A stretch of 64,000 nucleotides of DNA. Origin: an uncultured Thermoplasmata archaeon (lineage in GTDB: Archaea > Thermoplasmatota > Thermoplasmata > Halarchaeoplasmatales > Halarchaeoplasmataceae). The translations under genes were made by a program, and so were the position numbers. Numbering within the stretch: the stretch's first letter is position 1; every line of letters begins with the position of its first letter. Location of the stretch: positions 69,776 to 133,775 of the forward strand of contig CAYWJQ010000006.1 in the NCBI GenBank assembly GCA_964458595.1. The letters run 5' to 3'. The notes under the pieces were generated by a model. The model had not been told where the DNA came from. It saw only the letters and a list, made by a program, of their open reading frames with translations, and did no database searches. This document shows positions 3,417 through 63,184 of the stretch, one piece after another.

Positions 3417-3417
3417 C

Positions 3418-9045: not shown

Positions 9046-9107
9046 ATCTTACCACCTTCCAGCACAAATATGAATTTGGCATCTCACCTTATTTAAACTC
9101 TTCCGTA

Positions 9108-10074: not shown

Positions 10075-10118
10075 TAGGGTGGTGATTAAACTAGAGTATC
10101 CGAAAGGAGATAGTAAAG

Positions 10119-10727: not shown

Positions 10728-10737
10728 ATCTATCACT

Positions 10738-10765
10738 TAAAAACCTTTATTTTTTCATTTATCTG
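10738..10765 (+). terminator. T-rich terminator-like element after archaellin 1
   Basis: aaaaacctttattttttcatttatc directly after the stop; similar motif follows each archaellin transcription unit. Confidence 0.45.
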
Positions 10766-10914
10766 ATCTTGAAAAAATTTGTTTTCATCTTCACCCTAAA
10801 GTCTTATTGGTCTTGATAATAGAACAAAAAAATAGGCTTTGGTAAACAGAGTTTATTCTATAATTATGGAACAACTCTTAGTAATTAGAATTTAAAAATT
10901 AAAAGGATAATTTC

Positions 10915-10935
10915 TTCCGAATTTATATAATCGAT
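10915..10935 (+). promoter_or_regulatory. BRE/TATA-like promoter element of archaellin 2
   Basis: ttccgaatttatataatcgat, identical to the element at 10054. Confidence 0.6.
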
Positions 10936-10975
10936 AAGGGAGGTGATTAAGATAGTAAAAAGAAAGGAGGATACA

Positions 10976-11575
10976 ATGGCAGGAACAAAACGATTAAAAC
11001 GAAAAGATGAAGAAGGCGCGATGGGCGTAGGAACGCTCATCATATTCATAGCCATGGTTCTAGTGTCGGCTGTGGCGGCCAGTGTACTTATCGATACCGC
11101 TAATAAGCTCCAACAGCAGGCAGAGAAAACAGGCGATCAGGCGATCCGAGAAGTGGCGACCTCGTTTATAGTGAAGGATGTTATAGGATACAATGGAAAA
11201 GACGGTGAGATAGGAAATATATCTTTGAAAGTGGGCCTAGCGGCCGGAGCGCCCGCTCAGTCCTTGAACCAGACGGTTATACAGGTTCAGACCGATTCGA
11301 ATCAGGCGCATCTTACGGCTGCGGCTCAAGGATATGGTCCTGGATCTAACAATTATTCATGGCGAGAGGTCATCGAACAGGAAGATACTTTCAACCAGTA
11401 CTTAGAACAAGGAGATATAGTGAATATAACGATAAATCTGTATGAGATGTTCGGTAAAACAGTCGGGACTCAAAGCGAGATCTCCATCCAGATAATACCA
11501 AAGCATGGGACGCCAACCTATGAAGAGATAACGACGCCGCCCGTGATGGTAAGCAAGATCGTCGAGTTCACCTGA
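10976..11575 (+). CDS. flaB: Archaellin (FlaB/ArlB family) 2
   Basis: Same conserved N- and C-termini as archaellin 1; start placed at ATG 10976 (GGAGG 7 nt upstream) rather than the GTG at 10943 in the ORF track, which lies almost inside the promoter element. Confidence 0.88.
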
Positions 11576-11586
11576 GGATAGATACA

Positions 11587-11615
11587 GAAAACCTTTCCCT
11601 CTTTTCATTATTATA
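11587..11615 (+). terminator. T-rich terminator-like element after archaellin 2
   Basis: aaaacctttccctcttttcattattat. Confidence 0.45.
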
Positions 11616-11697
11616 TTGCACACGTGCGTGAAGATTGGTTATATTTTTCTATTTTTTCAAAATTGATAATCAGGGATGAATAATCAGAGAAATAATC

Positions 11698-11721
11698 GTT
11701 TCCTAATTTATATAGTGAATA
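11698..11721 (+). promoter_or_regulatory. BRE/TATA-like promoter element of the archaellin 3-4 pair
   Basis: cgtttcctaatttatatagtgaat, followed by conserved leader atcatgctgtatccgagaggagataaaacatg. Confidence 0.6.
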
Positions 11722-11762
11722 AGAGAGGTGATTATCATGCTGTATCCGAGAGGAGATAAAAC

Positions 11763-12401
11763 ATGAGAAGGATAAAACGAGAAGACGAAAAAGGAGCGAT
11801 GGGCGTAGGAACGCTCATCGTATTCATCGCAATGGTACTGGTAGCCGCGGTAGCGGCCAGTGTACTTATCGACACAGCGAACAAGCTACAGCAGCAGGCA
11901 GAGCAAACAGGTGATCAAGCGATCAGGGAAGTATCGACCGCATTCCAAGTACACGATGTATTTGGATATAATGCTGCTGGTGACAATAAGATAGAGAATC
12001 TAACGCTTAAAGTAGGTTTAGCGGCAGGAGCGCCAAGTCAAGACCTGAATCAAACTGTAGTTCAGGTTTCAGGTCCTTCTAGCGAAGCGAATCTACTAGC
12101 AGTAGATAGCGACAATTATGATCTTGGCGAAGGAGCAGATAGTGATTCGTATGCGATAGACAATATAATCGAGCAAGAAGATGGTGGATCTGTAGAGTTT
12201 TCAGATGTCCGCTATTTAGAACAAGGAGATCTAGTGAACATAACGATAGCTATAGATGAAACTTCAGTAGGTGGGCCAGGCACTGGGATAGGTCCTCAAA
12301 CAGATCTATCGATCCAGATAATGCCGAAGCACGGCACGCCGACCTACGAGGAAATAACCACACCACCAGTGATGACAACGAAGATAGTTGATTTAAACTA
12401 A
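11763..12401 (+). CDS. flaB: Archaellin (FlaB/ArlB family) 3
   Basis: [61 protein letters not shown]; variable middle; conserved C-terminus. Confidence 0.9.
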
Positions 12402-12410
12402 GGTGATAAC

Positions 12411-13022
12411 ATGAGAAGGATAAAAAGAGAAGATGAAAAAGGAGCGATGGGCGTAGGAACGCTCATCGTATTCATCGCGATGGTGCTAGTAGCTGCGGTA
12501 GCAGCTAGCGTTTTGATCGATACCGCGAACAAGTTACAGCAGCAGGCAGAACAGACAGGAGATCAAGCGATCAGGGAAGTATCCACCGCTTTTACCGTTA
12601 AAGACGTCTATGGAGTAGACGGAGGAACTTATGGTGATGAAAACGGCAAGATAGACACGTTATACATGAAGATAGGCCTAGCGGCAGGAGCTCCTGCTCA
12701 GGACATGGACCAGACGATCATACAGCTGAAAAATGATACTGCAGAAGCAAATCTACAGAACGGAAGTAGTGCAGGATCTTCTGATTATACAATAGACCAG
12801 GTCATCGAACAAAGTGATCCTGAAGATGGTTACTTAGAACAGGGTGACATCCTCGAGATAGAAATAGATGTCACTTCAGCACTAGATGATGGATCGGCTA
12901 CCGTTGGATTAGGTCCACAGGAAGATGTTTCCATACAGATAATACCGAAGCACGGTACACCTACCTACGAACAGATCACCACGCCGCCTACGATAATTAA
13001 CACCCATGTAGACCTAGGTTAG
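12411..13022 (+). CDS. flaB: Archaellin (FlaB/ArlB family) 4
   Basis: N-terminal 60 residues identical to archaellin 3; 9-bp intergenic spacer (ggtgataac), so co-transcribed with archaellin 3. Confidence 0.9.
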   Translation: MRRIKREDEKGAMGVGTLIVFIAMVLVAAVAASVLIDTANKLQQQAEQTGDQAIREVSTAFTVKDVYGVDGGTYGDENGKIDTLYMKIGLAAGAPAQDMDQTIIQLKNDTAEANLQNGSSAGSSDYTIDQVIEQSDPEDGYLEQGDILEIEIDVTSALDDGSATVGLGPQEDVSIQIIPKHGTPTYEQITTPPTIINTHVDLG

Positions 13023-13029
13023 ATGCGAT

Positions 13030-13075
13030 GAAAAACCCTTTCCCTATTATTATTTTTAATTCTTTTTTAATTTAA
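13030..13075 (+). terminator. T-rich terminator-like element after archaellin 4
   Basis: gaaaaaccctttccctattattatttttaattcttttttaattt; near-identical to the element after archaellin 6. Confidence 0.5.
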
Positions 13076-13125
13076 CTCCTCTATTTTCAAAATAACTCCT
13101 CCTCTCTGTTATCGTTGTAGATAAT

Positions 13126-13149
13126 CGTTTCCGAATTTATATAGTGAAT
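13126..13149 (+). promoter_or_regulatory. BRE/TATA-like promoter element of the archaellin 5-6 pair
   Basis: cgtttccgaatttatatagtgaat plus a leader identical to that of archaellin 3. Confidence 0.6.
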
Positions 13150-13191
13150 AGGAAAGATGATTATCATGCTGTATCCGAAAGGAGATAAAAC

Positions 13192-13800
13192 ATGAGAAGG
13201 ATAAAAAGAGAAGACGAAAAAGGAGCGATGGGCGTTGGGACGCTCATCGTGTTCATCGCGATGGTACTGGTAGCCGCAGTAGCGGCTAGTGTACTGATAG
13301 ATACAGCGAACAAGTTACAGCAGCAGGCAGAACAGACAGGAGATCAAGCGATCAGAGAAGTTTCGACCGCATTCCAGGTGCAGGACGTGTTTGGTTATGA
13401 CGCCTCTAGTGGGGGCTTAGAGAATATAACATTGAAGGTAGGCTTAGCAGCAGGTGCACCAGCACAAGATCTGAATCAAACGGTGATACAGATATCTGGA
13501 CCAAGTAATGAAGATAACTTGATCGCACCCCATAACAGCAGTGACTATGCAGATGGTGGTAACTATTATATCAGAGGCATAATCGAACAGGAAGGTGACA
13601 CAGGTACATTCTCAGATGTCCGGTATTTAGAGCAGGGAGATCTTGTTAATATAACAATATCTCTCACTGATAGTGATATAAGTAGTCCAGTAAGCACCCA
13701 GACGGATTTGTCGATCCAGATAATGCCGAAGTACGGAACGCCGACCTATGAAGAGATCACCACGCCGCCAGTGATGACATCGAAGATAGTAGATCTATGA
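13192..13800 (+). CDS. flaB: Archaellin (FlaB/ArlB family) 5
   Basis: Conserved archaellin N- and C-termini. Confidence 0.9.
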
Positions 13801-13813
13801 CAAAGGTGATAAC

Positions 13814-14398
13814 ATGAGAAGGATAAAAAGAGAAGACGAAAAAGGCGCGATGGGCGTGGGAACGCTCATCGTATTTATCGCCATGGTACTGGTAGCCGCG
13901 GTAGCGGCCAGTGTACTGATCGACACAGCGAACAAGTTACAGCAGCAGGCAGAACAGACAGGAGATCAAGCGATCAGAGAAGTTTCGACCTCGTTCACAG
14001 TTAAAGATGCCTACGGACAAGACAACGATGATGATGGCCTGATAGAGGATGTTGTTTTAAAGATAGGATTGGCTGCAGGTGCTCCTGCACAGAACTTAGG
14101 TCAAACGATGCTTCAGCTAAAAAATGATACGGCTGAAACTAACGTTAAAGTCACGAGTACCTCTTACAGTAAAGTGATCGAACAGGATTCTGATGGTCAA
14201 ATAGATTATTTGGAACAGGGAGATATAGTGAAAGTTGAAGTTACAGGTATCGGTACTGCTAGTTATTTCGATACTGGGAATGGTCTTGGTACTCAGCAGG
14301 ATCTTTCCATCCAGATAATACCGAAGCACGGCACGCCGACTTACGAGCAGATAACAACACCACCTACGATAGTAGATCAACACGTAGATCTTACCTAA
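13814..14398 (+). CDS. flaB: Archaellin (FlaB/ArlB family) 6
   Basis: Conserved archaellin N- and C-termini; 13-bp spacer to archaellin 5. Confidence 0.9.
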   Translation: MRRIKREDEKGAMGVGTLIVFIAMVLVAAVAASVLIDTANKLQQQAEQTGDQAIREVSTSFTVKDAYGQDNDDDGLIEDVVLKIGLAAGAPAQNLGQTMLQLKNDTAETNVKVTSTSYSKVIEQDSDGQIDYLEQGDIVKVEVTGIGTASYFDTGNGLGTQQDLSIQIIPKHGTPTYEQITTPPTIVDQHVDLT

Positions 14399-14404
14399 AA
14401 GCGA

Positions 14405-14447
14405 TGAAAAACACCTTTCCCTATTATTATTTTTTAATTCTTTTGAA
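14405..14447 (+). terminator. T-rich terminator-like element after archaellin 6
   Basis: gaaaaacacctttccctattattattttttaattctttt. Confidence 0.5.
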
Positions 14448-14599
14448 TAATGAATCATTTTTGAAGATAAAAGATCTTTTAAAATATTTTGATTATTAGG
14501 CTTCAAAATCATAAGCGAGATAAGATTTCACAATTATTCTAACTGATAATAATCGTCAAAGCTTTATGAATTTCTAGCTAGATAAGTAATGCGTTCTTA

Positions 14600-14662
14600 G
14601 AACAACCCGTTTCCTATTCAAAATGAATATAGGAGAGGTAAACCCCCTAGTGATAAAACATG
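14600..14662 (+). other. Degenerate copy of the archaellin promoter/leader with no archaellin coding sequence downstream
   Basis: ccgtttcctattcaaaatgaatataggagaggtaaaccccctagtgataaaacatg aligns with cgtttcctaatttatatagtgaataagagaggtgatta...gataaaacatg, but the TATA box is disrupted and the following ORF (14660-14869) has no archaellin motifs. Confidence 0.5.
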
Positions 14663-15630
14663 TCCCTAGGTTCCGGGGAATTTACCTCTCTTTTCATCCT
14701 GAACCGGCCCATTTTCTTAGAGCCCTTCAACTTTTCTTTTGATCTCCTGCTCATTTCCGGCGACAAAGAATGTAATCCCTTCCATATCTCTGTTCTTATT
14801 GCAGCACATTATATTCAAACTATCCTTCCAGAACTATATCTGGGCAACAGTGAGATCGGAATCATCTAGTATGAATTTTGATGTACCACAGCACTTCCTC
14901 TGTTCCTTTTGAAATTATCCATCTCAAATTTAAAATCTACTATCTCTTCCGACATCTCTCTCATCTCATCCGGATAATATTCCCCCTGATCCTGGCTATC
15001 AGGTATTATATCCTCAAAACTTTCATTTCCCTCTTTTTCAGCTACCAGCCTATCTTAAACGACTTCACTGCCTTCAATGTTACTCAAAGACGGCAATATT
15101 ACATGAGGAAATAAGTCGTCTTGGAATCTTTTTAATTTTCTTATATTTTTGAAAATAATAATAAGTTAAACCTTAAAGATAGAAAAAACATAAGTTATCC
15201 ATCTACCATTTTAAACATTCAAAATCAAATAAGATCTTTATAGAAAAAATCGAACTCTAAAATAAAAAAAATTTTTTAATTCCGTATGGAAGAATTTTTT
15301 CATTTTCCTTCAAAAACTACTCAATGAAAATTTAATCTAAAATAAAGATGTTTTTCCTCTAATCAACTGGTTTTAGTATATATGAGATCGTTATCGGTTG
15401 CTCGAAATGATGAGTTTTTCTTTCTTTAGTAATCAAGGATGATTATTATAGAGAATAAATCTACTGCGATGTTTTCATCCTTGGTAATCAACCATCTCAA
15501 AAAACATTGATAAATAAACCATATAATCGTATTCAATGATGATTTTCAATGATGATAATTCGAGTGTTTTATCAAGATTGATACCACTTTCGAAATTACT
15601 ATTTATATCGATAATGATATTTCATAACGA

Positions 15631-15655
15631 GAACAGGAATTGATTGCGCCTGTTC
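15631..15655 (+). promoter_or_regulatory. Inverted repeat upstream of the seventh archaellin
   Basis: gaacagg-(11 nt)-cctgttc, about 40 nt upstream of ATG 15696 and just downstream of an A/T-rich tttatat box at about 15602. Confidence 0.3.
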
Positions 15656-15695
15656 GTAATCGCCCTTTATCGGGTGTCTAAGAGGCGGATAGTTT

Positions 15696-16319
15696 ATGAG
15701 ACGACTAAAAAGAAATAGTGAAGTAGAAGACGAAAAAGGTATGATGGGTGTGGGAACCCTGATGATCTTCATAGCGATAGTACTAGTGTCTGCAGTATCT
15801 GCGGGAGTATTCATCCGAACAGTGACGATGTTAAAACAGCAGGCAGAACAGTCCGCGGAAGAAGCGATGGCCGAGGTATCCACTTATATCAAGGTGAGAT
15901 CGATGCTTGGGATAAGAAATAAGACCGGAACCGGTCTCAAGAAGATTTACGTGAACTTGGGAGTAGGTCCGGGTACACCTCCGCAGAACTTAGAAAATCT
16001 GCTGATACAAGTCGATAACGGAGACGCACAAAAAGCCCTAGAATACAGTCCTGATAAAGCAAGCGGAGAGAATTTTACAGCGGTAGCTCTAAAAGATCCT
16101 GAAGGCGAATTCGATAGAGAAGACAACCCGTTGATCTCTAGTGGTACAACTCTGCAGTTGACTTTCAATATAACACAGATCGATGGAAATACGACGGGCT
16201 CTTTCGATCTACCACCACAGACCGAGATGAACATACAGTTCACTCCAAAACACGGTGCGAGTACGATAGAGATATTGGTCACACCTTCGGTTTACCACAA
16301 GGACATAATGCATCTGTAA
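15696..16319 (+). CDS. flaB: Divergent archaellin paralog 7
   Basis: KGMMGVGTLMIFIAIVLVSAVSAGVFIRTVTMLKQQAEQ signal peptide/helix and C-terminal NIQFTPKHGASTIEILVTPSVYHKDIM; distinct promoter and central region. Confidence 0.75.
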   Translation: MRRLKRNSEVEDEKGMMGVGTLMIFIAIVLVSAVSAGVFIRTVTMLKQQAEQSAEEAMAEVSTYIKVRSMLGIRNKTGTGLKKIYVNLGVGPGTPPQNLENLLIQVDNGDAQKALEYSPDKASGENFTAVALKDPEGEFDREDNPLISSGTTLQLTFNITQIDGNTTGSFDLPPQTEMNIQFTPKHGASTIEILVTPSVYHKDIMHL

Positions 16320-26208: not shown

Positions 26209-29200
26209 ATGGGAAATAGTCGGGAGCTAAATCCTCAAGAACTGGAAAAAGAGATTCTTCAGTTTTGGAGGTCAGAAGATATCAACGATGAATTGATCGA
26301 TTCTAGGAGGGGTGGTAGAAATTATTATCTGGCTAGACCCCCTTTTCCTGTCAAAGATGAACTTAGCTGGGACGAATTATATGGCAATATAATCTACGAT
26401 GCGTGGGCCCGATTCATGAGTATGCGCGGTTTTAACGTCAGAAACGGTATAGGGACGGACCCGTTGAGTCTCAGGATAGAGAAATTGGCCTTGAAAGAAG
26501 AGGGTCTCAGATGCTTGAAAACTTCACTTGAGGGTCATGAAAGTTTTTCAGAGGACCTCTCTGACAGGGCTGAAGTCCTAAAGGAAGAGACCTTCGATCA
26601 TCTTCAGCATCTTGGGCTTTGGACGAACTCGGAATATGATTATGAAACTACCTCCGGTAAATTTATAGACTCGATATGTTGGACTATCAAAGAACTGATG
26701 GAAAAAGATTTACTCGCAAAAAAAGAGAAGCCCGTAAGATGGTGCCCAGAATGTAAAATTCCTGTGATGGGTTCCGAGAAGTCCACTAGAGAAGAACCGA
26801 GGAATGACCCCATAGTGAAGGTCCCTCTCGCGAGCGGGAAAGAGAGATATTTCCTAGTGGAGATAAAAGATTTGTGGAAACTACCCGCGAGCCTGTCTTT
26901 AGCCGTGAATCCGAAAATGAAATATTCGGTCATAAAATCTACTACAGGGGATGGAGAGGTCGAACAATACGTGGTTCTCCAGGAAAAAGCGGCCGAGATG
27001 ATGGAGAAAGCGGGAAGAAGATACACCGTTTTGAATACGGTAGATGGTAAAAAATTAAAAGGACTTTCCTTCAGATATCCTTTGGGAGAAAAGATACCCG
27101 AAAAAGTAGAAATTGATTGTGAACATAAAAGAAGGGTTTTAGGTACAGATGAGGTGAATGAGGAGGGAACCGGTATCGAATTTTTGGTTCCTCCGTATGA
27201 AGAGAGCCATCTTGAGATCGCCGAAGAAAATGATATGAATATCTACGATCCGCTTCGGGATAATGGTTACTTTGATGGGGGACCGAGGAAGAATAAATAT
27301 TCGGGTCTTTCGACTTTCCAAAGCGAAGAAGTGATCTTAGATGATCTTAGAGCTAAAGGATTATTGTTTTGGAATGAACGAGAACAAAGGAAAGTAGAAG
27401 TTTGCGACGCCTGCAAGAGTAAACTTATAAGACATAGAAAGAAGGAATGGTTCTTCGACAGTGAGAGATTCGAAGAAGACATAGGTGAGGGATTAAATCA
27501 GATCGAGACCCTGCCTTCCAATAAAAATTTGAAAGTGGACGATTGGTTAGTTACTAGGGATAATCACTGGGGCATGGCTTTCCCGATTTGGAGGTGTGAA
27601 TGCGGTAAATCTTTTATACCCTCAGAGCGGAAGGAATTAGCCGATAACTCGGACTATGATGTAGATGATCTATTCATCCCGGAAACGATGAAAAATATAG
27701 AAGTGGAATGTCCCGAATGCGGTAAAAGGATGGACCGTGATGACAGGGTGATCACCCCCTCACTTTTGAGAGCCGCATCCCCCTGGGCTCAGATAGGATA
27801 TCCCCATGATGAAAAAGGATATCAGTCGTGGTGGCCCGGAAAACTGATGATAGGTAGCGATCCAAGAGAGGACGGTTTATTTTCTGCAAATCTTAGTTTG
27901 TCTCTTTCTTTATTTGATGAGCCCAGCATCGAAAAGATTTTGCTCAAAGGAACGATCATAAGCGAGATAGATTATAAGAACGTGAAAGGACTGGTAGACA
28001 ATCAGGGCCACGATACATTGAGAATACATCTTTTATCGGACTCACATCTCTGGGAAGATCGAAAGATCGAAGGAGATAACCTTCAAGAACCTCATCCGAT
28101 GATAAGAGTCCTTTGGAACCTGCATCAGTTCTTTAAAGACAATTTGAGAACATTGGATTTAGAACTGGAAGATCTAGTATCGGAACCGGATTTGGAAAGA
28201 TTAGAGGTGGAGGATAGATGGTTGTGTTCCTGTTTGGAAACGACCAAAGAGGTTTCCCATGAATATTACGAACATGGAAGGATAGACGAGGCTCAGAAAG
28301 TATTTCAAGATTTTATCCTAGAGGATTTTGCTCAATGGTATATAAGTTTAGCTAGAGAGAGACTCGGTGATGGTAAGGAGAACGAAGAAAATATATTGAG
28401 CGCGATGTACCGTTGTTTGAAGGACATATCGAAATTGATATTCCCTATAGCTCCTTTCATCGGTGAAAAGATATATCTCGATCTTAATGAAGATGAGAAG
28501 AGCGCTTTCCTCTCAGGATGGCCTGATTTTGAAGAGAAGTACCGTTCCCTCGAGTTAGAAGATGAGATGAAAGAGATCAGAAGAATAGTAAATGAAATAA
28601 AAGAGATCAAGCGGAGAGAAGAACTGCCTGAGAAATGGCCGCTAGATGAGATAATATACAAACCGAAGGATGAAGAAAGTAAGGACCTGATCGAAAGATA
28701 CAGCCACGTTATCAAAGACAAGGCCAAAGTGAAAATAGTCAAAATTTTAGAGGTGGGAGAGGAATGGGAAGATTCCATCCTTAAAGTGAGACCCAACGAG
28801 GAGACCATAGGAAAGTCTTATCAGCAGTGGAAAAGCAAGATTGCTACCATGCTGCAACAAAGGTCTCCCGAAGAGATAAGAAAAGGCGTCGAGGAAGGCG
28901 AGTTCACCATGGGATTAGAGGGTCAGATCATAGAAATAGAACCGGAGATGGTGGAATTCGAAAAGGACATGCCCGAAGGATACAAAGAATTGTCTTTAGA
29001 CGGACATGATATCTTCGTTAATCTGGAGGTCACTAACCAGATATGGGAAGAAGAGATGGCCGATGAGATCATACTTAGATTGAAAAGTATGCGAGAAGAC
29101 ATGAATCTTGCTGAGGAAGATGAGATAGACGCTTATATTTCAGGGGAGGATTACATTATAGAAGCGGTGGAAAATCATATGGCGGGGATAAAAGAAAGGA

Positions 29201-30207
29201 GCGGGGCGAGAGAGATTAAAGTCGATGACGAGGACACTGCCGAATGCGAGTACATCCTAGAGTGGGAAATAAACGGTCAAGATGTGGAGATAGGAATCAA
29301 CCCTCTCTATAAAACGCAGGTTTTGGATTATTTCACGAGATTATCCGGAGTAGACGAACAGATCGCTGAGACCCTTTATGAAGCTAGATATACCTCTATC
29401 GAGCATCTCAAAGAAGCATCGGCTTCAGAGCTATCGGGTGTAGAGGGCATCAAAAGGAGCTTAGCTAGGAGTATAATCAACTCTCTAAAAGAGATCGAAA
29501 GTAAAGAAGAACTTCAGGAAGAGAAGAAACCCTCTGAAAAGCTAAAGGCCGAGGAAGAAGAAGAAAAAGAAACTGGTGAAAAAGAGATGGAGGAAGAACC
29601 AGAGGAAGAGATAGAAGAAGAGACTGAGGAAAAAATGGAAAAAGAAGCCGAAGAAGAGCCGGAAGAAGGACTTGAAGAAACTGAAGAAAAACTCGAGGAA
29701 GAAGAAGAGGAAACTATGGATAGAGAGAGGATCCAAGAGGAATTACCAGATAAAATTTCACTTGGCTCCACGTACTTGATCGAAGAAGAAGGAACGGAGG
29801 AATCTTTCAGCTTATTGAAAGAAGTATTAGATATGGGTCAGCAGGGTCTTTGTGTATCTAGAGATTATCCGGAAAAGATAAAGGAGGAATACGATTTAGA
29901 GGACGTTGAGATGATCTGGCTTTCGAACGTCGACAGGGAAGACGTGATCAGGCCGAAGAGTTTGGAAAAGCTCAGTTTAGCTTTAGAGAACTTTTTGGCA
30001 AGGAAAGGTGGAGTCATATTGTTAAACGGACTTGAGTATCTCATCACTAATAATGACTTCCGAACTGTGCTCCACCTCATCCAATCCATTAAAGATCAGG
30101 TTGCCATAAATGAATCTATACTCCTAATACCGATTAATCCCACGGTGGTCGAAGATAGCCAACTTGATCTATTGAGCGGAGAAATTGATGAATTGATCGA
30201 ACCCTGA
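26209..30207 (+). CDS. Isoleucyl-tRNA synthetase-like paralog with degenerate catalytic motifs, fused to helix-hairpin-helix region, acidic linker and DUF835-like domain
   Basis: Class I aaRS scaffold recognisable (PPFP...MRGFNV...GTDPLSLRIE; DWLVTRDNHWGMAFPIWRCECG; Zn-knuckle CPEC/CDAC motifs) but HIGH is replaced by WDEL and the KMSKS position reads YKNVKG; C-terminal 450 aa are HhH-like, E-rich linker and a domain homologous to the centre of the 5773-9045 protein. Confidence 0.8.
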   Translation: MGNSRELNPQELEKEILQFWRSEDINDELIDSRRGGRNYYLARPPFPVKDELSWDELYGNIIYDAWARFMSMRGFNVRNGIGTDPLSLRIEKLALKEEGLRCLKTSLEGHESFSEDLSDRAEVLKEETFDHLQHLGLWTNSEYDYETTSGKFIDSICWTIKELMEKDLLAKKEKPVRWCPECKIPVMGSEKSTREEPRNDPIVKVPLASGKERYFLVEIKDLWKLPASLSLAVNPKMKYSVIKSTTGDGEVEQYVVLQEKAAEMMEKAGRRYTVLNTVDGKKLKGLSFRYPLGEKIPEKVEIDCEHKRRVLGTDEVNEEGTGIEFLVPPYEESHLEIAEENDMNIYDPLRDNGYFDGGPRKNKYSGLSTFQSEEVILDDLRAKGLLFWNEREQRKVEVCDACKSKLIRHRKKEWFFDSERFEEDIGEGLNQIETLPSNKNLKVDDWLVTRDNHWGMAFPIWRCECGKSFIPSERKELADNSDYDVDDLFIPETMKNIEVECPECGKRMDRDDRVITPSLLRAASPWAQIGYPHDEKGYQSWWPGKLMIGSDPREDGLFSANLSLSLSLFDEPSIEKILLKGTIISEIDYKNVKGLVDNQGHDTLRIHLLSDSHLWEDRKIEGDNLQEPHPMIRVLWNLHQFFKDNLRTLDLELEDLVSEPDLERLEVEDRWLCSCLETTKEVSHEYYEHGRIDEAQKVFQDFILEDFAQWYISLARERLGDGKENEENILSAMYRCLKDISKLIFPIAPFIGEKIYLDLNEDEKSAFLSGWPDFEEKYRSLELEDEMKEIRRIVNEIKEIKRREELPEKWPLDEIIYKPKDEESKDLIERYSHVIKDKAKVKIVKILEVGEEWEDSILKVRPNEETIGKSYQQWKSKIATMLQQRSPEEIRKGVEEGEFTMGLEGQIIEIEPEMVEFEKDMPEGYKELSLDGHDIFVNLEVTNQIWEEEMADEIILRLKSMREDMNLAEEDEIDAYISGEDYIIEAVENHMAGIKERSGAREIKVDDEDTAECEYILEWEINGQDVEIGINPLYKTQVLDYFTRLSGVDEQIAETLYEARYTSIEHLKEASASELSGVEGIKRSLARSIINSLKEIESKEELQEEKKPSEKLKAEEEEEKETGEKEMEEEPEEEIEEETEEKMEKEAEEEPEEGLEETEEKLEEEEEETMDRERIQEELPDKISLGSTYLIEEEGTEESFSLLKEVLDMGQQGLCVSRDYPEKIKEEYDLEDVEMIWLSNVDREDVIRPKSLEKLSLALENFLARKGGVILLNGLEYLITNNDFRTVLHLIQSIKDQVAINESILLIPINPTVVEDSQLDLLSGEIDELIEP

Positions 30208-42410: not shown

Positions 42411-42532
42411 GGGCTCATAGTCTAGTTGGTTATGACGTCGCCTTGACACGCGTTGGATTCCAACAGAATCCACTGGCTTCGCGCTGACGCTCAAAATGGC
42501 GGAGGTCGCCGGTTCGAACCCGGCTGAGCCCA
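42411..42532 (+). tRNA. tRNA-Val(GAC) with a canonical-position intron of about 48 nt
   Basis: Acceptor stem GGGCTCA/TGAGCCC, T-arm GCCGG-TTCGAAC-CCGGC, anticodon stem TCGCC/GGCGG; anticodon loop TTGACA interrupted after position 37 by an insert at about 42449-42496; no encoded CCA. Anticodon assumes canonical intron position. Confidence 0.7.
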
Positions 42533-51201: not shown

Positions 51202-52028
51202 TTGTCTTTAAGAGAGCGTAAGGAAGAATTAGCCGTTTATATCACTGTAGCGATATTGCTGATATTGACGATCTGGTTCTTTTTTGGCGCTTCTAGAGAA
51301 ACGTTAGATTTTGAAAAAGCTACTATCCTCATAAATAACTCGGAAGGTGAGAAAATCAACATAACCGTCGAGATCGCCGACGAAACGGTGGAACAGAAGC
51401 AGGGTTTGATGCACAGGGACTCGCTATGCGAGGACTGTGGGATGCTGTTCGTATATGATGAGAACGTTAACCACGGTTTCTGGATGAAGAACACTAAGAT
51501 ACCTTTATCTATAGCCTTTATACTTTTGTTAAGGCAGAAAACCCTATGGCTCTGCCGTAGGGATGAAAGCCACTTTCACTCACCCCTATGATGAACACTT
51601 AAATATCTGGGGTTGTATGTTTTAAGTGGAGTTCCAAACACGGGCCTGCAGAAAGTTTGAGAAGACCACTTTTGCAGGCAGGGGCCGATCATGAATCGAC
51701 ATGGTGTTGTGGCGCGGCCCCCTGAGCTGGAAGCGACGACCCGACCTCTGTGTTTGGGTAAAACAAAAGTCGGCGAGCGGAATGCAACTTCCGGGCTTGT
51801 GCAAGGAGTCAATGGCTCCATAGGAAGCCTCACCCTTCTAGGGTGAAGGAGGACGTCACATCAGAAAACGGTACGATAATGGAGATCCAGCACATGGAGC
51901 CCGAAACCATGGAGACTCATACGCCGGCAGAACCCTATCGGTACGCTCTAGAGGTCAACCGTGGATTCTTTGAGGAGAACAGTATCGATATTGGAGACAA
52001 GGTTAAAATACCGGATAGATATAAATGA
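51202..52028 (+). pseudogene. DUF192-family gene split into two reading frames by a GC-rich structured insert of about 335 bp
   Basis: N-terminal part (51202-51522) carries QGLMHRDSL...GMLFVYDE...FWMKNTKIPLSIAFI; C-terminal part (from about 51858) carries ENGTIMEIQHMEP...PYRYALEVNRGFF...IDIGDKVKI in a different frame. Confidence 0.55.
51523..51857. other. GC-rich, hairpin-dense insert inside the DUF192 gene (candidate MITE, intron or embedded ncRNA)
   Basis: Local GC visibly higher than the flanks; hairpins ccctatgg-ctctg-ccgtaggg (51542-51562), ctgcagaaag/cttttgcag (about 51647-51685), cacccttctagggtg (51831-51845); 5' cctatgg (51543) is complementary to 3' ccatagg (51818). Confidence 0.4.
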
Positions 52029-56249: not shown

Positions 56250-59200
56250 ATGAAAAGTAAACTGCTACAACTTACGGTTTGCGTGGTGATCGGGATCCTA
56301 GCTTTAACTGCCTTCTCTCCAGTAGCTAGAGGAGGAGTGTCTAAAGAATTAGAAGATTCGGTAGAAGATAGGGACGGCAATTTGCATAGTGCTTATATTG
56401 AGAATAAAAATATATATTATAAATTCGAAAGCGCAGATGGCAGAGATGAATTTAAGATTTTAATAAAGCAATGCAAATCTAAAGTTTGTAAGGCAAGACT
56501 GTCTATCGACGATAGTTTGATATACATCTCATGGTTGAGTTGTCATAGAGGGGAGTTAGAAATAAATTACTGCGGGGCTGAACTCGACTCTATCCGCGAT
56601 TGGACCTCAACTAGAACGGTAGATGCTGAGTTCAACAACATCTTGGATTATGATCTTCGGGTGAAAAAAGGTAGAATGAAAGTGATCCATGATGGAGAAA
56701 AATTGATGGAATGGCTGGGAGATATCGATGGTGACTTCATACCTGATATAGTAGACAAAGCCCCTGCAGGATATGATTTTGATGAGAGCTCGGTAACGGC
56801 GGACTTTGTCAAAAGTTATGAGGATATGGGGGTATCTCTGGGTGTTTATATACCTGAATCGGCTTGGAGAAGACCTGTTTTTTATAAGCGGACGATCAAA
56901 GTCGTGAGAAATGGGGATCGATTTTCTATAAGAGGGAACTTGCCTCGTGGAACTGAGCTATCCTTAAAATACAGAGGTGAAGATTTTTCCGATGAAGCCA
57001 GATTCTATAGAAAAGATTTTAGATCATATAAACCTGTCGAGAGCGGGATTGACGGACCAAACGATTATATATGGCTCGAGACCGACCGGACGGGGAGATA
57101 TACCATAAAAGATGCATCTAAAAGAGATTTTGACTCTGACGGGTTATCTGACCTCGTAGAGCTTTCTTCACCATCTGATAGAACTTTGACTGAAAAAGAT
57201 TTTTCATCAACCAAATTCGAAACTAATTCTATTTCCAAGCTCGTATTCGACAGAAATACACATGGAAACCTCTTCTGCAGCAGAGCATATATAGAATTGA
57301 AAAATATGGATGGTGAGAGTATTGACGGACTCGAGGTAGACGTCGGGAATGATGGTAAAACGGACTGGGAAGCCGTTGGGACCGTGAAAAACGAAGTGTC
57401 ATTCGGGAGGTTGAAGCTCGGCATCAACCTTTATTGGTTCAACCATTACGTCAATGAAAAGCCGAACGAAGTTACGATCCCGATAAGATTCGAGTCGATG
57501 GAAAACAGAGATGTAAAGATCACCGATGCCGAGATAGAATTTGAAGGTGTAGATACCAGCCCAGTTAAAGCTGATACAAATGGAGACGGTCTTTTGGATG
57601 GCTGGAAAGACGTCGACGGCGATATGGAATTTGAAAGAAAAGGTGAAGATGGTGTTTTAGCTACCTCTGACGACGAGACCCCTGGGGCCTTAGTCCGAGG
57701 TTTGGATCCAACCGAACTCGAGTATATGGGCAGGAAAGGAAGAGTGAGCTGGAACAGATACAAAAAAGGTGTCAATCAGGCGAATGGTAATCTATTCCTG
57801 AGCCATAACGACCTAAGTATAGATGCTCTTGGAATTAACATGGGCATAGGGAGACATTACAACAGTTTCGATCACGATAGAAAAGGCCCGCTCGGATATG
57901 GTTGGACGATGAATTATTTCGCAAACATCGTACCTTCAGAAGGAGATTTCGTCACATACTTTAACGGTGAGGGAACTGAATACAGGTTTGAATCTTTGGG
58001 AGGAGGTGATTATGAATCTCCCCACGGCTGCGGTTTCGATCTGGTCCGTGAAGAAGATGCATACAAACTGCGCTCCCCCTCTGGAAAGGTAAAAATATTC
58101 GATGAAAAGGGCAGATTGGCGCGTATCGAAGACAGGAACGAAAACTCACTCCACTTCACTTACGGTGAGAATGGAAATCTAAAAGAGGTGGAAGATGACT
58201 CCGGTTTGAGAATTGAACTTTATTATGAAGACGGAAAGTTGGTAAAAGTGAAGGGCCCGATAGGAAGGACCTGTCAATACGAATACAGCAAAGGCAGATT
58301 GACCAAATTCATCAATGCCGGCGGCAACGAGTACAGGTATATATACGGTCGAGATGATCTGCTGAAGACCATAATAAATCCCGTCGGATTATTCAAGTAC
58401 TATGATTATTCTTATTCTGGTCTACCCAAAGTCGAGAGGATAGTGAAAGGGAAGTATGAGAACGGGATGTACATGAATTATCATGTCGACTTTGAAGCCG
58501 ATTATGCCTATCCCTCTCATACCGCTTGGAAAGACGGAGAAGGTAATGAGATAACGAACAGTTTCGGTAAAGGCGGGGCCATGATAAAACACGAGAACCC
58601 CGACGGAACCGTTTCCTATCTAGAATATGACCTAGATCACGATCGTGTGAGGGTCGTTGATAAGAAAGGTTATGTTTGGCACAACGAATTCGGTCCGATG
58701 GGTAAAATCGTGAAGTCGAAGGATTCCACCGGAAACGTGACGAAAAAAGATTGGAAGAGAGTCGCCAACTCCGACGAATATATATGCGTAAAAGAATCTT
58801 CGACGGACAAGAGAGGCTACACGAGAGAAAGAAACTACGGCGAAGATTTCGATCTCAAGAGCACTGTGAAGAAAGACGGTGCGAGATACAGATATGTAAG
58901 GAATGACAAAGGTCAGCTGACTAAGTTGATAAAGCCTAACGGCGCCGTGACAAGATACGAGTACGACGAACACGGCAACAGGATAAAGAAGATCAACGCT
59001 TTAGGTCATGAGACTAGATATGTTTACAACGAGATAGGTTGGAAGAAGAAAGTGATCAAACCTAACGGTGCTGTTACGAAGTTCGAATATAACGAGCTTG
59101 GTGAAAGGACCAAGATAATAGACGATAAAGGCAACGTTATAAAGAAAGAATACGACGCGGTAGGGAATCTAGTGAAAAAGGTGAATAAAAGAGGGGGCGT

Positions 59201-61658
59201 GACTCTATATAAGTACGATGTTTTCGGAAATATGATATCAAAGACGGATCCTCTCGGAAATACGGTGAGGTACAGATACGATAACAACGGCAACAAAGTG
59301 CTGAAGATAGGTCCTCGGGGTTATCCGACCTATTATGAATATGACTGTATGGACAGGCTGGTCAAGAAGACCGACGCTTATGGGAATTCGGTAGAATACA
59401 GATACGACGAATTCCATAACAGGATCGAGACGATTGATAAGAACGGCAATTCATGGAAGAAGAAATACGATAAGATGGGCAGAGTGACAGCAAAACTGTG
59501 TCCTTACGGTAAAGCTATCCGATATGAATATAATTCCGAAGGTCAGGTCGTGAAGAAGATAGACAGGATGGGCTACGTTACTGAATACGAGTACGACAAG
59601 GTCGGTAGAGTAGTGAGGATGAAGAGGAAGCTTGGTCCGGAAGGTACGAACGTGACTTTGAGATACGACGAAGTCGGTAATCTGGTGAGCGTCACTCAGG
59701 CCGACGGAAACGACACTTCCACATGGCGGTACAAGTATGATCTTCTGGGAAGAAAAGTGAAGGAGATAAGTCCATTAGGTCACGTCGAGACCTACGATTA
59801 CGACAAGATGGGGGATATAGTCGAGTATACCAATGCGGAAGGCGAATCGACTCAGTATGATCATGACAGTTTGGGACGCCTTACTTCGGTGGAATTCCCC
59901 GATGGAAAAAGTGTCGAAATAACTCATGACTTGGATAAGAATATGAAGATACAGGAGTACACTTATCCCGATGGTTCTGCGGAAAGTAAAGCACCTCACG
60001 TGAAGAAAGTGATAGAGAAATACGATCTGTTAGGGAAGACTACTAAGAGAACTACAGTGTGGGGTTCAGGTGAAGAGAGATCTATCAGCTACGAGTATGA
60101 CAGCGCGGGCAACATGATAAAGATGAACGACCAGTTCGGGAGGACAACGGAATATTATTACGATGCTTTGAACCGACTCGATGCGGTCGTTGACTACGAC
60201 GGCGACGTCACAACTTACGAGTACGACGCTAAAGGACATTTAGTGAAGACCACGCTGCCTACAGGCACTCGAGTCTACAGGGACTACAACAAAGCCGATA
60301 AGCTGACCGAGCTAAAGAACGTGAAGTCCAACGGCGAGGTCATCTCCAGCTTCGAATACGGCTACAACTGGAACGGCAATATAGTGAGCGTGACCAACAA
60401 GCACGGCAACACTACACACTACAATTATGACAAGGAGAGCAGACTGACCTTGGTAGAATATCCGAGCGGATCGAAGATGAAATATAAATATGATAAAAAA
60501 GATAATTTGCTGGAAAAGAAACGTATCGTGGATGGTAAGATCGTGAATACCGTGAATAACGAGTACGATAAAGAGAACAGGCTGATAAGCTCGAACGACA
60601 AGACCTACAGCTATGACAAGGACGGCAACCAGATCCGAGCGGGCGATATTAACTTCGACTACATGACATCCTTCGTCAACGGCAAGAATGTGAAGAGGTT
60701 GAAGAGCGTGTCCGAAAATGAGGAACACGTGGCTTCCTACTCATACACGCTGGAAGGTCACCGAACCGGCAAGTCCTTGGATTCAGGAGAATCAGAGATC
60801 AGCTACCACTACAACGGCAGAAACGTCCAGTACGAACAGTGGAGCAGCGGCAGAACGGTCAGATACACGCATCCGATCGAAGGCGGAAGCAGCTGTTCCA
60901 GCTGCGGATGCGGTGGAAGCAGCGGCTTCTTCACCGACCATCCGATAAGCATGGAATTGAATGGTACGAAGTACTACTATCTCTACAACGGTCAGGGCAG
61001 CGTCACCGAGCTGATAAATGCGGATGAAGAAGTGGTGAACAAATATAGATACACGCCGTTCGGCAGTCCTAGATTGAAGGTAGAGAGCGTGTACAACCCG
61101 TACGAGTACACGGGTAGACGGTTGGATGAAGAGACCGGACAGTATTACTATCGAGCGAGGATGTACTCGACTGAGCAGTGCAGGTTCACGACGCAGGACC
61201 CCGCTGGGATGCAGGAAGGTCCGAACATGTATGCTTACGTGAGCAACAATCCGGTGAATCATCGTGATCCGAGCGGGTTAATAGCCCCTGATGCAGTTAT
61301 CGACGGCGGTGGTGGACTAGCGAATTGTCCAGAAGCGAATTATGATACGATTGAAGAGTGTGTAGATTATCATTGGTATGGTATGGGGGAAGCAGACGCC
61401 CGGGAATTCTGCCACAGTATCTGTTTGAATGAAAAAGGTACTGGTGGATGTACGTTCACCTCATATTATTGGGATTGTGTAGAGAGCAATTCATGGGACA
61501 TAGTACATGGAACGAGTATTGTAATGAGTTGTGCATCGGGATGCCTCATGACAGGTCCAGCTTGGCCCGAATGTGTGGGAGCATGTTTAATTGGTGCAGG
61601 CGTCGCTGCATCATCCCCATACGTAGGATGTTTGGTTGCAGCGGCTTATGTATGTTAA
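56250..61658 (+). CDS. Rhs/YD-repeat polymorphic toxin (signal peptide, YD repeats, Rhs core with DPxGL boundary, Cys-rich C-terminal tip)
   Basis: Signal peptide MKSKLLQLTVCVVIGILALTAFSPVARG; dozens of YD repeats (YEYDAVGNLVKK, YRYDNNGNKV ...); Rhs core KYYYLYNGQGSVTELINADEEVVNKYRYTPFGSP...PVNHRDPSGL followed by a unique 125-aa Cys/Gly-rich tip; 1802 aa. Confidence 0.85.
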   Translation: MKSKLLQLTVCVVIGILALTAFSPVARGGVSKELEDSVEDRDGNLHSAYIENKNIYYKFESADGRDEFKILIKQCKSKVCKARLSIDDSLIYISWLSCHRGELEINYCGAELDSIRDWTSTRTVDAEFNNILDYDLRVKKGRMKVIHDGEKLMEWLGDIDGDFIPDIVDKAPAGYDFDESSVTADFVKSYEDMGVSLGVYIPESAWRRPVFYKRTIKVVRNGDRFSIRGNLPRGTELSLKYRGEDFSDEARFYRKDFRSYKPVESGIDGPNDYIWLETDRTGRYTIKDASKRDFDSDGLSDLVELSSPSDRTLTEKDFSSTKFETNSISKLVFDRNTHGNLFCSRAYIELKNMDGESIDGLEVDVGNDGKTDWEAVGTVKNEVSFGRLKLGINLYWFNHYVNEKPNEVTIPIRFESMENRDVKITDAEIEFEGVDTSPVKADTNGDGLLDGWKDVDGDMEFERKGEDGVLATSDDETPGALVRGLDPTELEYMGRKGRVSWNRYKKGVNQANGNLFLSHNDLSIDALGINMGIGRHYNSFDHDRKGPLGYGWTMNYFANIVPSEGDFVTYFNGEGTEYRFESLGGGDYESPHGCGFDLVREEDAYKLRSPSGKVKIFDEKGRLARIEDRNENSLHFTYGENGNLKEVEDDSGLRIELYYEDGKLVKVKGPIGRTCQYEYSKGRLTKFINAGGNEYRYIYGRDDLLKTIINPVGLFKYYDYSYSGLPKVERIVKGKYENGMYMNYHVDFEADYAYPSHTAWKDGEGNEITNSFGKGGAMIKHENPDGTVSYLEYDLDHDRVRVVDKKGYVWHNEFGPMGKIVKSKDSTGNVTKKDWKRVANSDEYICVKESSTDKRGYTRERNYGEDFDLKSTVKKDGARYRYVRNDKGQLTKLIKPNGAVTRYEYDEHGNRIKKINALGHETRYVYNEIGWKKKVIKPNGAVTKFEYNELGERTKIIDDKGNVIKKEYDAVGNLVKKVNKRGGVTLYKYDVFGNMISKTDPLGNTVRYRYDNNGNKVLKIGPRGYPTYYEYDCMDRLVKKTDAYGNSVEYRYDEFHNRIETIDKNGNSWKKKYDKMGRVTAKLCPYGKAIRYEYNSEGQVVKKIDRMGYVTEYEYDKVGRVVRMKRKLGPEGTNVTLRYDEVGNLVSVTQADGNDTSTWRYKYDLLGRKVKEISPLGHVETYDYDKMGDIVEYTNAEGESTQYDHDSLGRLTSVEFPDGKSVEITHDLDKNMKIQEYTYPDGSAESKAPHVKKVIEKYDLLGKTTKRTTVWGSGEERSISYEYDSAGNMIKMNDQFGRTTEYYYDALNRLDAVVDYDGDVTTYEYDAKGHLVKTTLPTGTRVYRDYNKADKLTELKNVKSNGEVISSFEYGYNWNGNIVSVTNKHGNTTHYNYDKESRLTLVEYPSGSKMKYKYDKKDNLLEKKRIVDGKIVNTVNNEYDKENRLISSNDKTYSYDKDGNQIRAGDINFDYMTSFVNGKNVKRLKSVSENEEHVASYSYTLEGHRTGKSLDSGESEISYHYNGRNVQYEQWSSGRTVRYTHPIEGGSSCSSCGCGGSSGFFTDHPISMELNGTKYYYLYNGQGSVTELINADEEVVNKYRYTPFGSPRLKVESVYNPYEYTGRRLDEETGQYYYRARMYSTEQCRFTTQDPAGMQEGPNMYAYVSNNPVNHRDPSGLIAPDAVIDGGGGLANCPEANYDTIEECVDYHWYGMGEADAREFCHSICLNEKGTGGCTFTSYYWDCVESNSWDIVHGTSIVMSCASGCLMTGPAWPECVGACLIGAGVAASSPYVGCLVAAAYVC
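60278..61277 (+). repeat. Rhs 3' core segment, copy A (inside the main rhs gene)
   Basis: About 1 kb repeated with high identity at about 61895-62917 and, 5'-truncated, from about 63440 to the window end. Confidence 0.85.
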
Positions 61659-61894: not shown

Positions 61895-62917
61895 AAGCTA
61901 TACTAACTACCTACGGGCACGAAGATATTCAGGGACTACAACAAAGCCGATAAGCTCACCGAGCTAAAGAACGTGAAGTCCAACGGCGATGTCATCTCCA
62001 GCTTCGAATACGGCTACAACTGGAACGGCAACATAGTGAGCGTTACGGACAAGAACGGCAACACTACGAACTACGACTACGATAAGGAGAACAGGCTGAC
62101 CTCAGTGGAATATCCGACTGGATTGACGATGAAATATAAATATGATAAGAAAGATAATTTGGCGGAAAAGAAACGTATGGTAGATGGTAAGGTAGTGAAT
62201 ACCGTAAATAACGAGTATGATGAAGAGAACCGTCTGATTAGATCGAACGACAAGACTTACAGCTATGACAAGGACGGCAACCAAATCAGAGCGGGCGATA
62301 TGAGTTTCGACTATATGACCTCACGCATCAACGGTAAAAATGTGAAGAGGCTGAAGAGCGTATCCGAGAGCGGCGAACACGTAGCATCTTATTCTTACAC
62401 ACTGGAAGGACAGCGAACAGGCAAATATCTCGATTCAGGAGAGTCCGAGATCAGCTATCACTACGACGGAAGGAACGTCCAGTACGAGCAGTGGAGCAGT
62501 GGAAGAACAGTAAGATACACGCATCCGATCGAAGGCGGAAGCAGCTGTTCCAGCTGCGGATGCGGTGGAAGCAGCGGAGTGTTCACCGACCATCCGATCA
62601 GCATCAAAGTGAATGGGACGAAGTACTACTACCTTTACAACGGACAGGGAAGCGTGACCGAGCTCATAAATGCTGATGAAGAAGTAGTGAACAAATATAG
62701 ATACACACCGTTCGGCAGTCCTAGATTGAAGGTAGAGAGCGTGTACAACCCGTACGAGTACACGGGTAGACGGCTGGATGAAGAGACAGGACAGTATTAC
62801 TACAGAGCGAGGATGTACTCGACAGAGCAGTGCAGGTTCACGACGCAGGACCCCGCGGGGATGCAGGAAGGTCCGAACATGTATGCTTATGTTGGGAATA
62901 ATCCGGTGAATCACCGT
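61895..62917 (+). repeat. Rhs 3' core segment, copy B (orphan cassette)
   Basis: Nucleotide identity to 60245-61277 visible by eye (e.g. agggactacaacaaagccgataagct); diverges right after the NHRDPSG codons. Confidence 0.85.
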
Positions 62918-63184
62918 GATCCGAGCGGAATGGTGAGTATGAGCGAGTGTTTGACTTTATGTAGCTTGGGGGGTTGTGCAGCTCTATGCGGAATGGCAGC
63001 TTATGCTGGTCTTGTCGGTGCTGTAGTTGGTGTCGGCTGTGGGGTAGCATGCTGGTCTTTGGGTTGTGGGACTCTATGCGGGATAATACTTGGCGATGGT
63101 GGAGGCACCTGGCCTGATCCTATTGAACCCCCACAATGTGATCCTCAAACCCATCAATGTTTGATGCACAATGCAATATCGTAG
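61973..63184 (+). CDS. Orphan Rhs C-terminal cassette with an alternative toxin tip
   Basis: GTG-initiated ORF whose first 315 aa match the main Rhs C-terminal core and end at PVNHRDPSGM, followed by a different 85-aa Cys/Gly-rich tip (CSLGGCAALCGMAAYAGLVGAVVGVGCGVACWSLGCGTLCG). Confidence 0.75.
   Translation: MKSNGDVISSFEYGYNWNGNIVSVTDKNGNTTNYDYDKENRLTSVEYPTGLTMKYKYDKKDNLAEKKRMVDGKVVNTVNNEYDEENRLIRSNDKTYSYDKDGNQIRAGDMSFDYMTSRINGKNVKRLKSVSESGEHVASYSYTLEGQRTGKYLDSGESEISYHYDGRNVQYEQWSSGRTVRYTHPIEGGSSCSSCGCGGSSGVFTDHPISIKVNGTKYYYLYNGQGSVTELINADEEVVNKYRYTPFGSPRLKVESVYNPYEYTGRRLDEETGQYYYRARMYSTEQCRFTTQDPAGMQEGPNMYAYVGNNPVNHRDPSGMVSMSECLTLCSLGGCAALCGMAAYAGLVGAVVGVGCGVACWSLGCGTLCGIILGDGGGTWPDPIEPPQCDPQTHQCLMHNAIS

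Follow-up and report, generated by a model that had tools for sequence, protein, structure and literature searches.

Results

A DUF192 gene is interrupted by 338 nucleotides

The locus described here belongs to the window, by which we mean the whole 64-kb stretch of DNA that was analysed, and all features of the gene and its insert are on the plus strand. A gene for a DUF192 protein is present in two parts. The 5′ part (51202..51521) contains codons 1-106 and the first two bases of Ile107, and the 3′ part (51860..52028) contains the third base of Ile107 and continues with Ser108 to the stop codon. The open reading frame (ORF) at 51202-51591 matches positions 1-54 of the Pfam DUF192 profile (PF02643; E = 5e-19). 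A second ORF at 51843-52028, which is in another frame than the 5′ ORF, matches positions 55-96 (E = 2.4e-7). When the two halves are joined as one protein, they match profile positions 1-96 with an E value of 8.8e-31. The original prediction, which was made from the sequence of the locus, had described an interrupted DUF192 gene at this place, and the two portions of the profile that flank the insert confirm it.

A comparison with orthologs defined the exact insertion point. More than 4000 relatives of the DUF192 protein were found in a protein search, and the closest of them (57-68% identity) come from the hypersaline Thermoplasmatota Ca. Natronoplasma and Ca. Saliniplasma, where the gene is always uninterrupted. 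Aligned with 12 uninterrupted orthologs, the junction reads IPLSIAFI-SENGTIMEIQ. Because these orthologs have no threonine at the junction, we place the insert at 51522-51859 (338 nt). From the protein alignment alone, 51523-51860 is equally possible, since there is an A at both junctions. The borders given in the original prediction, 51523-51857 (335 nt), restore the reading frame but leave one extra codon (Thr); measured against the ortholog alignment, they are 1 nt off at the left and 2 nt off at the right. With the revised borders, the host sequence resumes on the right of the element exactly where it stops on the left: no base has been gained or lost, and a target-site duplication is absent.

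As it stands, the 5′ ORF reads into the insert and reaches a stop codon at 51589-51591. The present gene products would be a fragment of 107 residues, to which a nonsense tail of 22 residues is added, and a second one of 56 residues that lacks a proper start codon. With the gene split into these two fragments, the insert most likely inactivates DUF192. Both halves have kept every residue that is invariant in the ortholog alignment, which makes it probable that the insertion is recent. No empty-site allele of this DUF192 gene is on record, the nearest DUF192 being 68% identical. The same sequence is held by the MAG GCA_905333805.1, in which it is broken inside the insert, with one contig ending at window position 51671 and another starting at 51761. 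In one related genome, synteny is lost before DUF192.

The insert is GC-rich and strongly folded, and encodes no recognizable protein

The insert had been described as rich in G+C and in hairpins, and both descriptions hold. Its G+C content is 51%, compared to 42.8% for the window, and reaches 56-58% in its 3′ two-thirds. It is also more stably folded than shuffled sequence (z = -2.9). We found no protein homolog for any ORF in the element. A 94-aa antisense frame and a six-frame concatenate of the element had no match in the protein database, and the exact antisense ORF is not on record. Likewise, no remnant of TnpB was seen in translations of the element.

High G+C content and strong folding would also suit a cellular structured RNA gene, such as RNase P RNA, SRP RNA or an unknown ncRNA, located inside DUF192, and an inserted structured ncRNA was one of the three explanations originally proposed. 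No SRP or RNase P RNA motif had been recognized at the time. Consistent with this, neither an RNase P, an SRP nor any other credible Rfam match is found on either strand at E ≤ 10. A few strings in the insert do resemble RNase P RNA motifs, and this resemblance was dropped for want of a model match. Rfam searches of the whole window (at the gathering score) and of the locus (E ≤ 10) otherwise gave chance-level matches at the locus: a C/D-box snoRNA inside the exon (E = 0.84), c-di-GMP-II (E = 5.5) and a lncRNA. Moreover, the copies described below occupy at least seven unrelated sites and have TTTAT...GTCAC as fixed borders, an arrangement that is not expected of a housekeeping RNA. A free-standing RNA gene is thus highly unlikely, and what survives of the ncRNA proposal is a candidate omega RNA in the 3′ part of the element.

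The sole Rfam match at the gathering score in the window is a tRNA at 42411-42532. Its length of 122 nt implies a tRNA intron of about 50 nt. Taken with the names of the protein homologs, it assigns the window to an archaeon of the Thermoplasmatota, a haloalkaliphilic one.

The insert is a dispersed repeat with fixed borders

By blastn and by searches that tolerate mismatches, the window holds only one copy of the element. Metagenomes were scanned with a 20-mer from its right end, AGGGTGAAGGAGGACGTCAC. An earlier probe, a 22-mer from the core of the element, had zero matches in the metagenomes; the soda-lake copies differ from this 22-mer at one base (C to T at 51697). The right-end 20-mer matches eight contigs. 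Seven of them are related, and all seven come from Kulunda soda-lake sediment metagenomes. The eighth contig, L009, is bacterial and of high GC, and it was rejected as a copy because the match is due to chance.

Three of the soda-lake loci (L010, L011 and L012) carry full-length copies that are 91-92% identical to the window copy over 51516/7-51859/61 in blastn alignments, and the similarity ends at the borders of the element. The remaining four (L008, L013, L014 and L015) have only its right part because their contigs end inside the element. Contigs that end in this way, at these four loci and in GCA_905333805.1, are expected of a repeat.

Including the window, the copies represent at least seven insertion contexts, with L010 and L013 sharing one site and flanks that are otherwise unrelated. 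Wherever the left flank is known, which is the case for four copies, the pentanucleotide TTTAT stands directly 5′ of the element, and beyond it the upstream sequences are unrelated. In the host gene, it occupies 51517..51521 and forms the codons TTT AT-. At the other border, all eight copies have the right end GACGTCAC, closing in GTCAC (51855..51859), after which the flanks diverge at once. A duplicated flank or target-site duplication is found in none of the copies. Nor are there terminal inverted repeats, as the ends ACTTTTGTT... and ...GGACGTCAC have no complementarity.

Ordinary chromosomal genes are the neighbours of the other copies. The L011 copy sits between two convergent genes, and one protein encoded next to a metagenome copy clusters with a protein from a Ca. 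Natronoplasma MAG. The L012 copy adjoins a fragment of a HATPase_c_4-like gene; we do not regard it as another clear case of a disrupted gene because removing the element restores no recognisable domain. Scans of viral contigs with four patterns gave no matches, and blastn of the element against plasmid and phage collections returned only chance matches.

Of the three explanations in the original prediction, a MITE-like insertion that creates a pseudogene comes closest, as the element is multi-copy, non-autonomous and gene-disrupting. A classical MITE, with a DDE transposase, terminal inverted repeats and a target-site duplication, would similarly account for a short, non-coding element that is present in several copies and disrupts a gene. 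The complementary heptamers reported close to both ends, CCTATGG (51543) and CCATAGG (51818), seem to point the same way. These heptamers exist, but they are set 21 and 35 nt inward from the ends of the element and are neither its termini nor terminal inverted repeats. CCTATGG is the 5′ arm of the left-end hairpin, and the same 581 nt contain 23 inverted pairs of similar size. The actual termini, ACTTTTG... and ...GACGTCAC, are not inverted repeats of each other, and the target is duplicated in no copy. Because both hallmarks are absent, the element is not a strict MITE, and we consider a classical MITE very improbable.

The ends of the element have the layout of IS200/IS605 transposons

Each end of the element contains a hairpin. 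The left palindrome (IPL; 51542..51562) is CCCTATGGC-TCT-GCCGTAGGG, with 20 nt between the left end and its foot. Folded as single-stranded DNA (ssDNA), it has a z-score of -3.2 in the window and of -4.85 in the L011 copy. Its stem is preserved through changes between copies: the pair 51545/51559 occurs as T-A, C-G or T.G, and 51547/51557 goes from T.G to C-G. Directly 5′ of the hairpin foot is the tetranucleotide AAAA (51538..51541), the left guide (G_L), which all four full copies have kept. Just 3′ of IPL, the ssDNA fold has a small second hairpin, TGAAAG-CCA-CTTTCA (51564..51578), which is one mismatch weaker in the other copies due to variation at 51568.

The right palindrome (IPR; 51828..51849), CCTCACCCT-TCT-AGGGTGA(A)GG with a bulged A, is nearly invariant in the eight copies. 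Minimum-energy folding of the L011 copy gives its 9-bp form, including the bulge. The right guide (G_R), GAAG (51824..51827), is located 5′ of the hairpin foot, and the motif GTCAC ends exactly 10 nt 3′ of the foot; guide and motif are both invariant in 8/8 copies. A TCT loop, a 9-bp stem and a CC/GG foot are the only features common to IPL and IPR, whose stem sequences differ.

The same architecture is seen in IS608 from Helicobacter pylori, in which cleavage takes place 3′ of TTAC, 19 nt 5′ of the left palindrome, and TCAA lies 10 nt 3′ of the right palindrome (PMC3201880). The IS608 guides, AAAG (left) and GAAT (right), are found 5′ of the hairpin feet, and IS608 also has a second hairpin 3′ of IPL (PMC5934647). 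In both elements, the target is followed after about 19-20 nt by a guide and the left hairpin, and the right end consists of a guide, a hairpin and 10 nt to the cleavage motif. Unlike IS608, the element here has TTAT rather than TTAC as its target and a left spacing of 20 rather than 19 nt, and the two palindromes of IS608 are more alike.

In IS608, the guides pair with the cleavage motifs, and we used this relationship to examine the ends of the element. The pairs TTAC/AAAG and TCAA/GAAT, together with the base pairs T-4:A+17 and T-3:A+16 quoted for IS608 (PMC5934647), yield a rule in which motif and guide positions pair as C1-G2, C2-G1 and C4-G4, and G3 is A. TTAT/AAAA and TCAC/GAAG obey this IS608-derived rule, with Watson-Crick pairing in six of six cases and an A as the third base of either guide. 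Motifs and guides agree with those of IS608 at positions 1-3 (TTA-/AAA-, TCA-/GAA-). At either end, position 4 differs from IS608 in the motif and the guide alike and is still complementary; at the right end, G:C stands in place of T:A. The 9-bp form of IPR with its bulge was chosen after the rule was known; the 7-bp core alone misfits the guide match and the 10-nt spacing.

A second point of reference is ISGst2 from Geobacillus stearothermophilus, with the TAM TTTAT and the TEM TTCAC (Meers et al. 2023, PMC10055086). The target next to the left end is identical to this TAM. TCAC is common to the two right-end motifs, which depart from their targets at the same positions 3 and 5. As in the ISGst2 elements, the guide tetranucleotides covary with the motifs, and protein-less derivatives exist among the kin of ISGst2 as well. 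The two differ in the first right-end base (G here, T there) and in host, which is bacterial for ISGst2, and they have no detectable sequence similarity. For ISGst2, transposition, omega-RNA expression and TnpB cleavage have been shown by experiment, whereas the element here is described from its sequence.

Among archaeal elements, the closest counterparts are the haloarchaeal PATEs, such as the HqIRS families of Haloquadratum walsbyi (Dyall-Smith et al. 2011, PMC3119063). All sequence-level features that define PATEs in haloarchaea are found here: the element is too short for a transposase, it has palindromes near both termini, and it lacks terminal inverted repeats and a target duplication. 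It also shares with HqIRS elements a conserved short terminal oligonucleotide, "homogeneous" copies that are more than 90% identical, and an archaeal hypersaline host. In contrast to them, its host phylum is Thermoplasmatota rather than Halobacteria, and no parent IS605-type transposon has been identified here.

The TTTAT/GTCAC borders, the subterminal hairpins, the guide pairing and the absence of terminal inverted repeats and target-site duplications therefore identify the insert (51522..51859) as a non-autonomous IS200/IS605-type PATE. We conclude that such an element has, with high probability, inserted into DUF192.

The evidence does not support an intron

Since removing the insert restores the DUF192 frame exactly, an intron-like element was another of the original candidates. 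A self-splicing intron or a miniature IStron, that is, a group I intron with IS605 ends, would make the insertion phenotypically silent. Several observations are in keeping with this idea. Besides the exact frame, the gene's strand is strongly structured within the element, both DUF192 halves are undamaged, and a U directly precedes the element. IStrons of the IS605 family are known, in which splicing takes place at the ends of the transposon (bioRxiv 10.1101/2023.11.20.567912). Like them, the element here has IS605-type ends inside a protein-coding gene, and removal at its borders restores the ORF exactly. However, exact restoration of the frame is expected of any IS200/IS605 insertion because no duplication is made.

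Other evidence argues against splicing. Over the 581-nt stretch, there is no match to a group I, group II or ribozyme family in Rfam at E ≤ 10, whereas published IStron introns match the Rfam group I model. Group I introns have a terminal G and group II introns begin with GUGYG. The element begins with ACUUUUG and ends with GUCAC, so it has neither the GUGYG start nor the terminal G, its final base being C. Finally, the copies lie at unrelated sites, including intergenic ones, and splicing has no role for the L011 copy between its convergent genes. Taken together, these features make a self-splicing intron or IStron quite improbable.

Two intron-like readings were tried and rejected. In a reading by eye as a group I or group II intron, alternative U...G sites replace an invariant isoleucine or add residues, and no domain V is present. 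A 9-bp perfect helix (51522-30/51762-70), intron-like in look, is eroded without compensation in the other copies.

In Archaea, an intron could also be removed by the tRNA splicing endonuclease at a bulge-helix-bulge (BHB) motif, and a BHB intron is known in a protein-coding gene, cbf5 of Crenarchaeota. The host has an intron-containing tRNA (42411-42532) and thus presumably the endonuclease, and removal of the insert would be in frame. Against this, a geometric scan of all junction pairs within ~30-40 nt of the boundaries found no BHB at junctions that would yield an ortholog-like protein. The best in-frame candidate, 51524/51847, has 3/4 central pairs, mostly G.U, and would add five residues. 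A BHB intron would also leave the dispersed copies at TTTAT unexplained, and we regard it as extremely unlikely. We therefore retain the reading of the insert as a PATE.

The 3′ part of the element is the most conserved

Conservation is uneven along the element. Between the window and soda-lake copies, identity is 84-87% in the left 104 nt, 90-92% in the middle and 96-98% in the last 101 nt. The GC-rich, best-conserved 3′ module (51626..51859) is a candidate scaffold for a TnpB omega RNA. In the predicted fold of the last 101 nt (51759-51859), three consecutive stem-loops are followed by a 3′ tail. The third stem-loop is the right palindrome, and 51769-75 pair with the 3′ tail at 51854-59.

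Changes between copies indicate which strand is folded. In the minimum-energy fold of the window copy, 33 changed cells within predicted pairs keep the pair and 25 break it on the plus strand, compared to 10 kept and 42 broken on the minus strand. Because pairs are kept on the plus strand and broken on the minus strand, the structure belongs to the top strand, as ssDNA, RNA or both; by folding z-scores alone, the two strands cannot be told apart. Within the 3′ module, six distinct substitutions preserve a pair, mostly by changing G-C to G.U, and three disrupt one. RNAalifold detected no double-sided covariation in the near-invariant 3′ 100 nt, and no Rfam family matches the module. A TATA-like sequence, CTTAAATA, is present at 51598-51605 in three of the four full copies; L012 has CTCAAATA instead.

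These features recall published omega RNAs. PATEs "often encode omega RNAs", which are used in trans by the TnpB of other IS copies (Meers et al. 2023, PMC10055086). In the TnpB omega-RNA scaffold, the guide is preceded by three consecutive stem-loops and the 3′ end of the scaffold is paired; the RE hairpin is common to TnpA, as DNA, and TnpB, as RNA (Zedaveinyte et al., bioRxiv 10.1101/2023.11.20.567912). By analogy, we put just short of an even chance on the conserved 3′ 100-230 nt being an omega-RNA scaffold.

Discussion

The PATE in DUF192 represents an ordinary insertion by a transposon whose type is known, and the element itself was previously uncatalogued. IS608 carries tnpA and tnpB and is about 1.8 kb long, whereas the element here contains neither gene. 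No tnpA or tnpB was found in the window, in the ~10 kb beyond its left end or at the metagenome loci. By analogy with IS608 and ISGst elements, a Y1 (HUH) TnpA encoded elsewhere presumably acts on it in trans. This TnpA would bind both hairpins of the top strand in its single-stranded form and would cleave 3′ of TTAT and 3′ of TCAC. The element would then leave as a single-stranded circle, with the donor resealed precisely, and the circle would be joined 3′ of another TTTAT, in this case at the TTT-ATA (Phe-Ile) codons of DUF192. If the element were excised precisely, the DUF192 gene would be restored.

If the 3′ module does serve as an omega RNA, its transcription would run rightwards beyond the end of the element, and its guide would start at 51860, comprising the first ~16 nt of the 3′ part of DUF192. 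The TnpB of another IS could use this RNA in trans to cut empty TTTAT sites, and such cleavage would favour retention of the element. To our knowledge, RNA-guided transposon homing has not been described in haloalkaliphilic Thermoplasmatota. We tentatively suggest, as the somewhat less probable case, that the element is an orphan-guide transposon of these archaea, whose 3′ module is a working omega RNA for a TnpB encoded elsewhere. The scaffold may possibly represent a class that is absent from current RNA libraries. Much less likely, some unrecognised mechanism might in addition take the element out of the DUF192 transcript, which would keep the gene functional.

Nothing about the DUF192 element challenges current understanding, and its immediate consequence is for annotation. 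The two DUF192 fragments should be treated as one gene disrupted by a mobile element; they represent neither a split gene nor an intron-containing one, nor a new ncRNA locus. The element also accounts for the assembly breaks of these genomes at the DUF192 spot. Together with the alignment of copies, the TTTAT...GTCAC signature provides a way to find the whole family in soda-lake Thermoplasmatota, and the parent IS with its tnpA and tnpB can probably be found by the same signature. If the 3′ module is an omega RNA, it would hint at a compact archaeal TnpB system with TTTAT as its target motif, which would be of modest interest for genome-editing surveys.

Sequence features within and beside the element

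Directly 5' of the right guide (the tetranucleotide GAAG, 51824-51827), the element carries AATGGCTCCATAGG (51811-51824), which is similar to both arms of the left palindrome (TATGGCTC...CGTAGG, 51545-51561). Judged from this similarity, the segment may be a vestigial second palindrome. A long-range pairing between the left and right sides of the element, 51547 with 51820, may also exist; in two of the Kulunda soda-lake contigs with full-length copies, L010 and L012, T-A has changed jointly to C-G at these positions, and in the third, L011, it has not.

The copy on L012 adjoins three successive HATPase_c_4/DeoR-type gene fragments (L012 151-1774), in what looks like a decaying region rich in repeats. 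Taking the element out of L012 regained no recognisable domain. In the window, the DUF192 coding sequence directly before the insertion point (51450-51522, plus strand) gave a weak C/D-box snoRNA-like match to the sn3071 model (17.5 bits, E 0.84). Its D box is absent, and we regard it as most likely a chance match.

Gene content of the surrounding region

The window shares a block encoding a PALP enzyme and an aminotransferase with the related genome GCA_964585175.1 (53624-56007 against 9946-12330 of its locus L018, 94.9% nucleotide identity). Synteny stops directly past this block, and therefore the neighbourhood of the MBL-fold gene and DUF192 is not kept in that genome.

An archaellum cluster occupies about 94-16300 (1-21659 of locus L016, which reaches past the left end of the window), in which numerous paralogues encode archaeal flagellin (PF01917), alongside T2SSE/T2SSF genes of FlaI/FlaJ-like type. 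Directly outside that end are genes for chemotaxis proteins: CheB, CheF, a response regulator and a PAS histidine kinase. The gene at 26209-30207 (plus strand) encodes a fusion protein of 1332 aa, a class I aminoacyl-tRNA synthetase (tRNA-synt_1, Anticodon_1, DUF5915) with a helix-hairpin-helix and a DUF835 domain joined to its C terminus. Rfam places a tRNA gene at 42411-42532 (plus strand, 54.2 bits), whose length of 122 nt implies an intron of about 50 nt; ARAGORN, as run here on the whole window, reported zero tRNAs.

Downstream, a gene at 56250-61658 encodes a protein of 1802 aa that combines RHS repeats with a DUF6531 domain, and a 403-aa ORF at 61973-63184 likewise contains an RHS repeat, both on the plus strand; neither exact protein was on record in the contig collection. 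This locus is polymorphic-toxin-like, which is uncommon for an archaeon.
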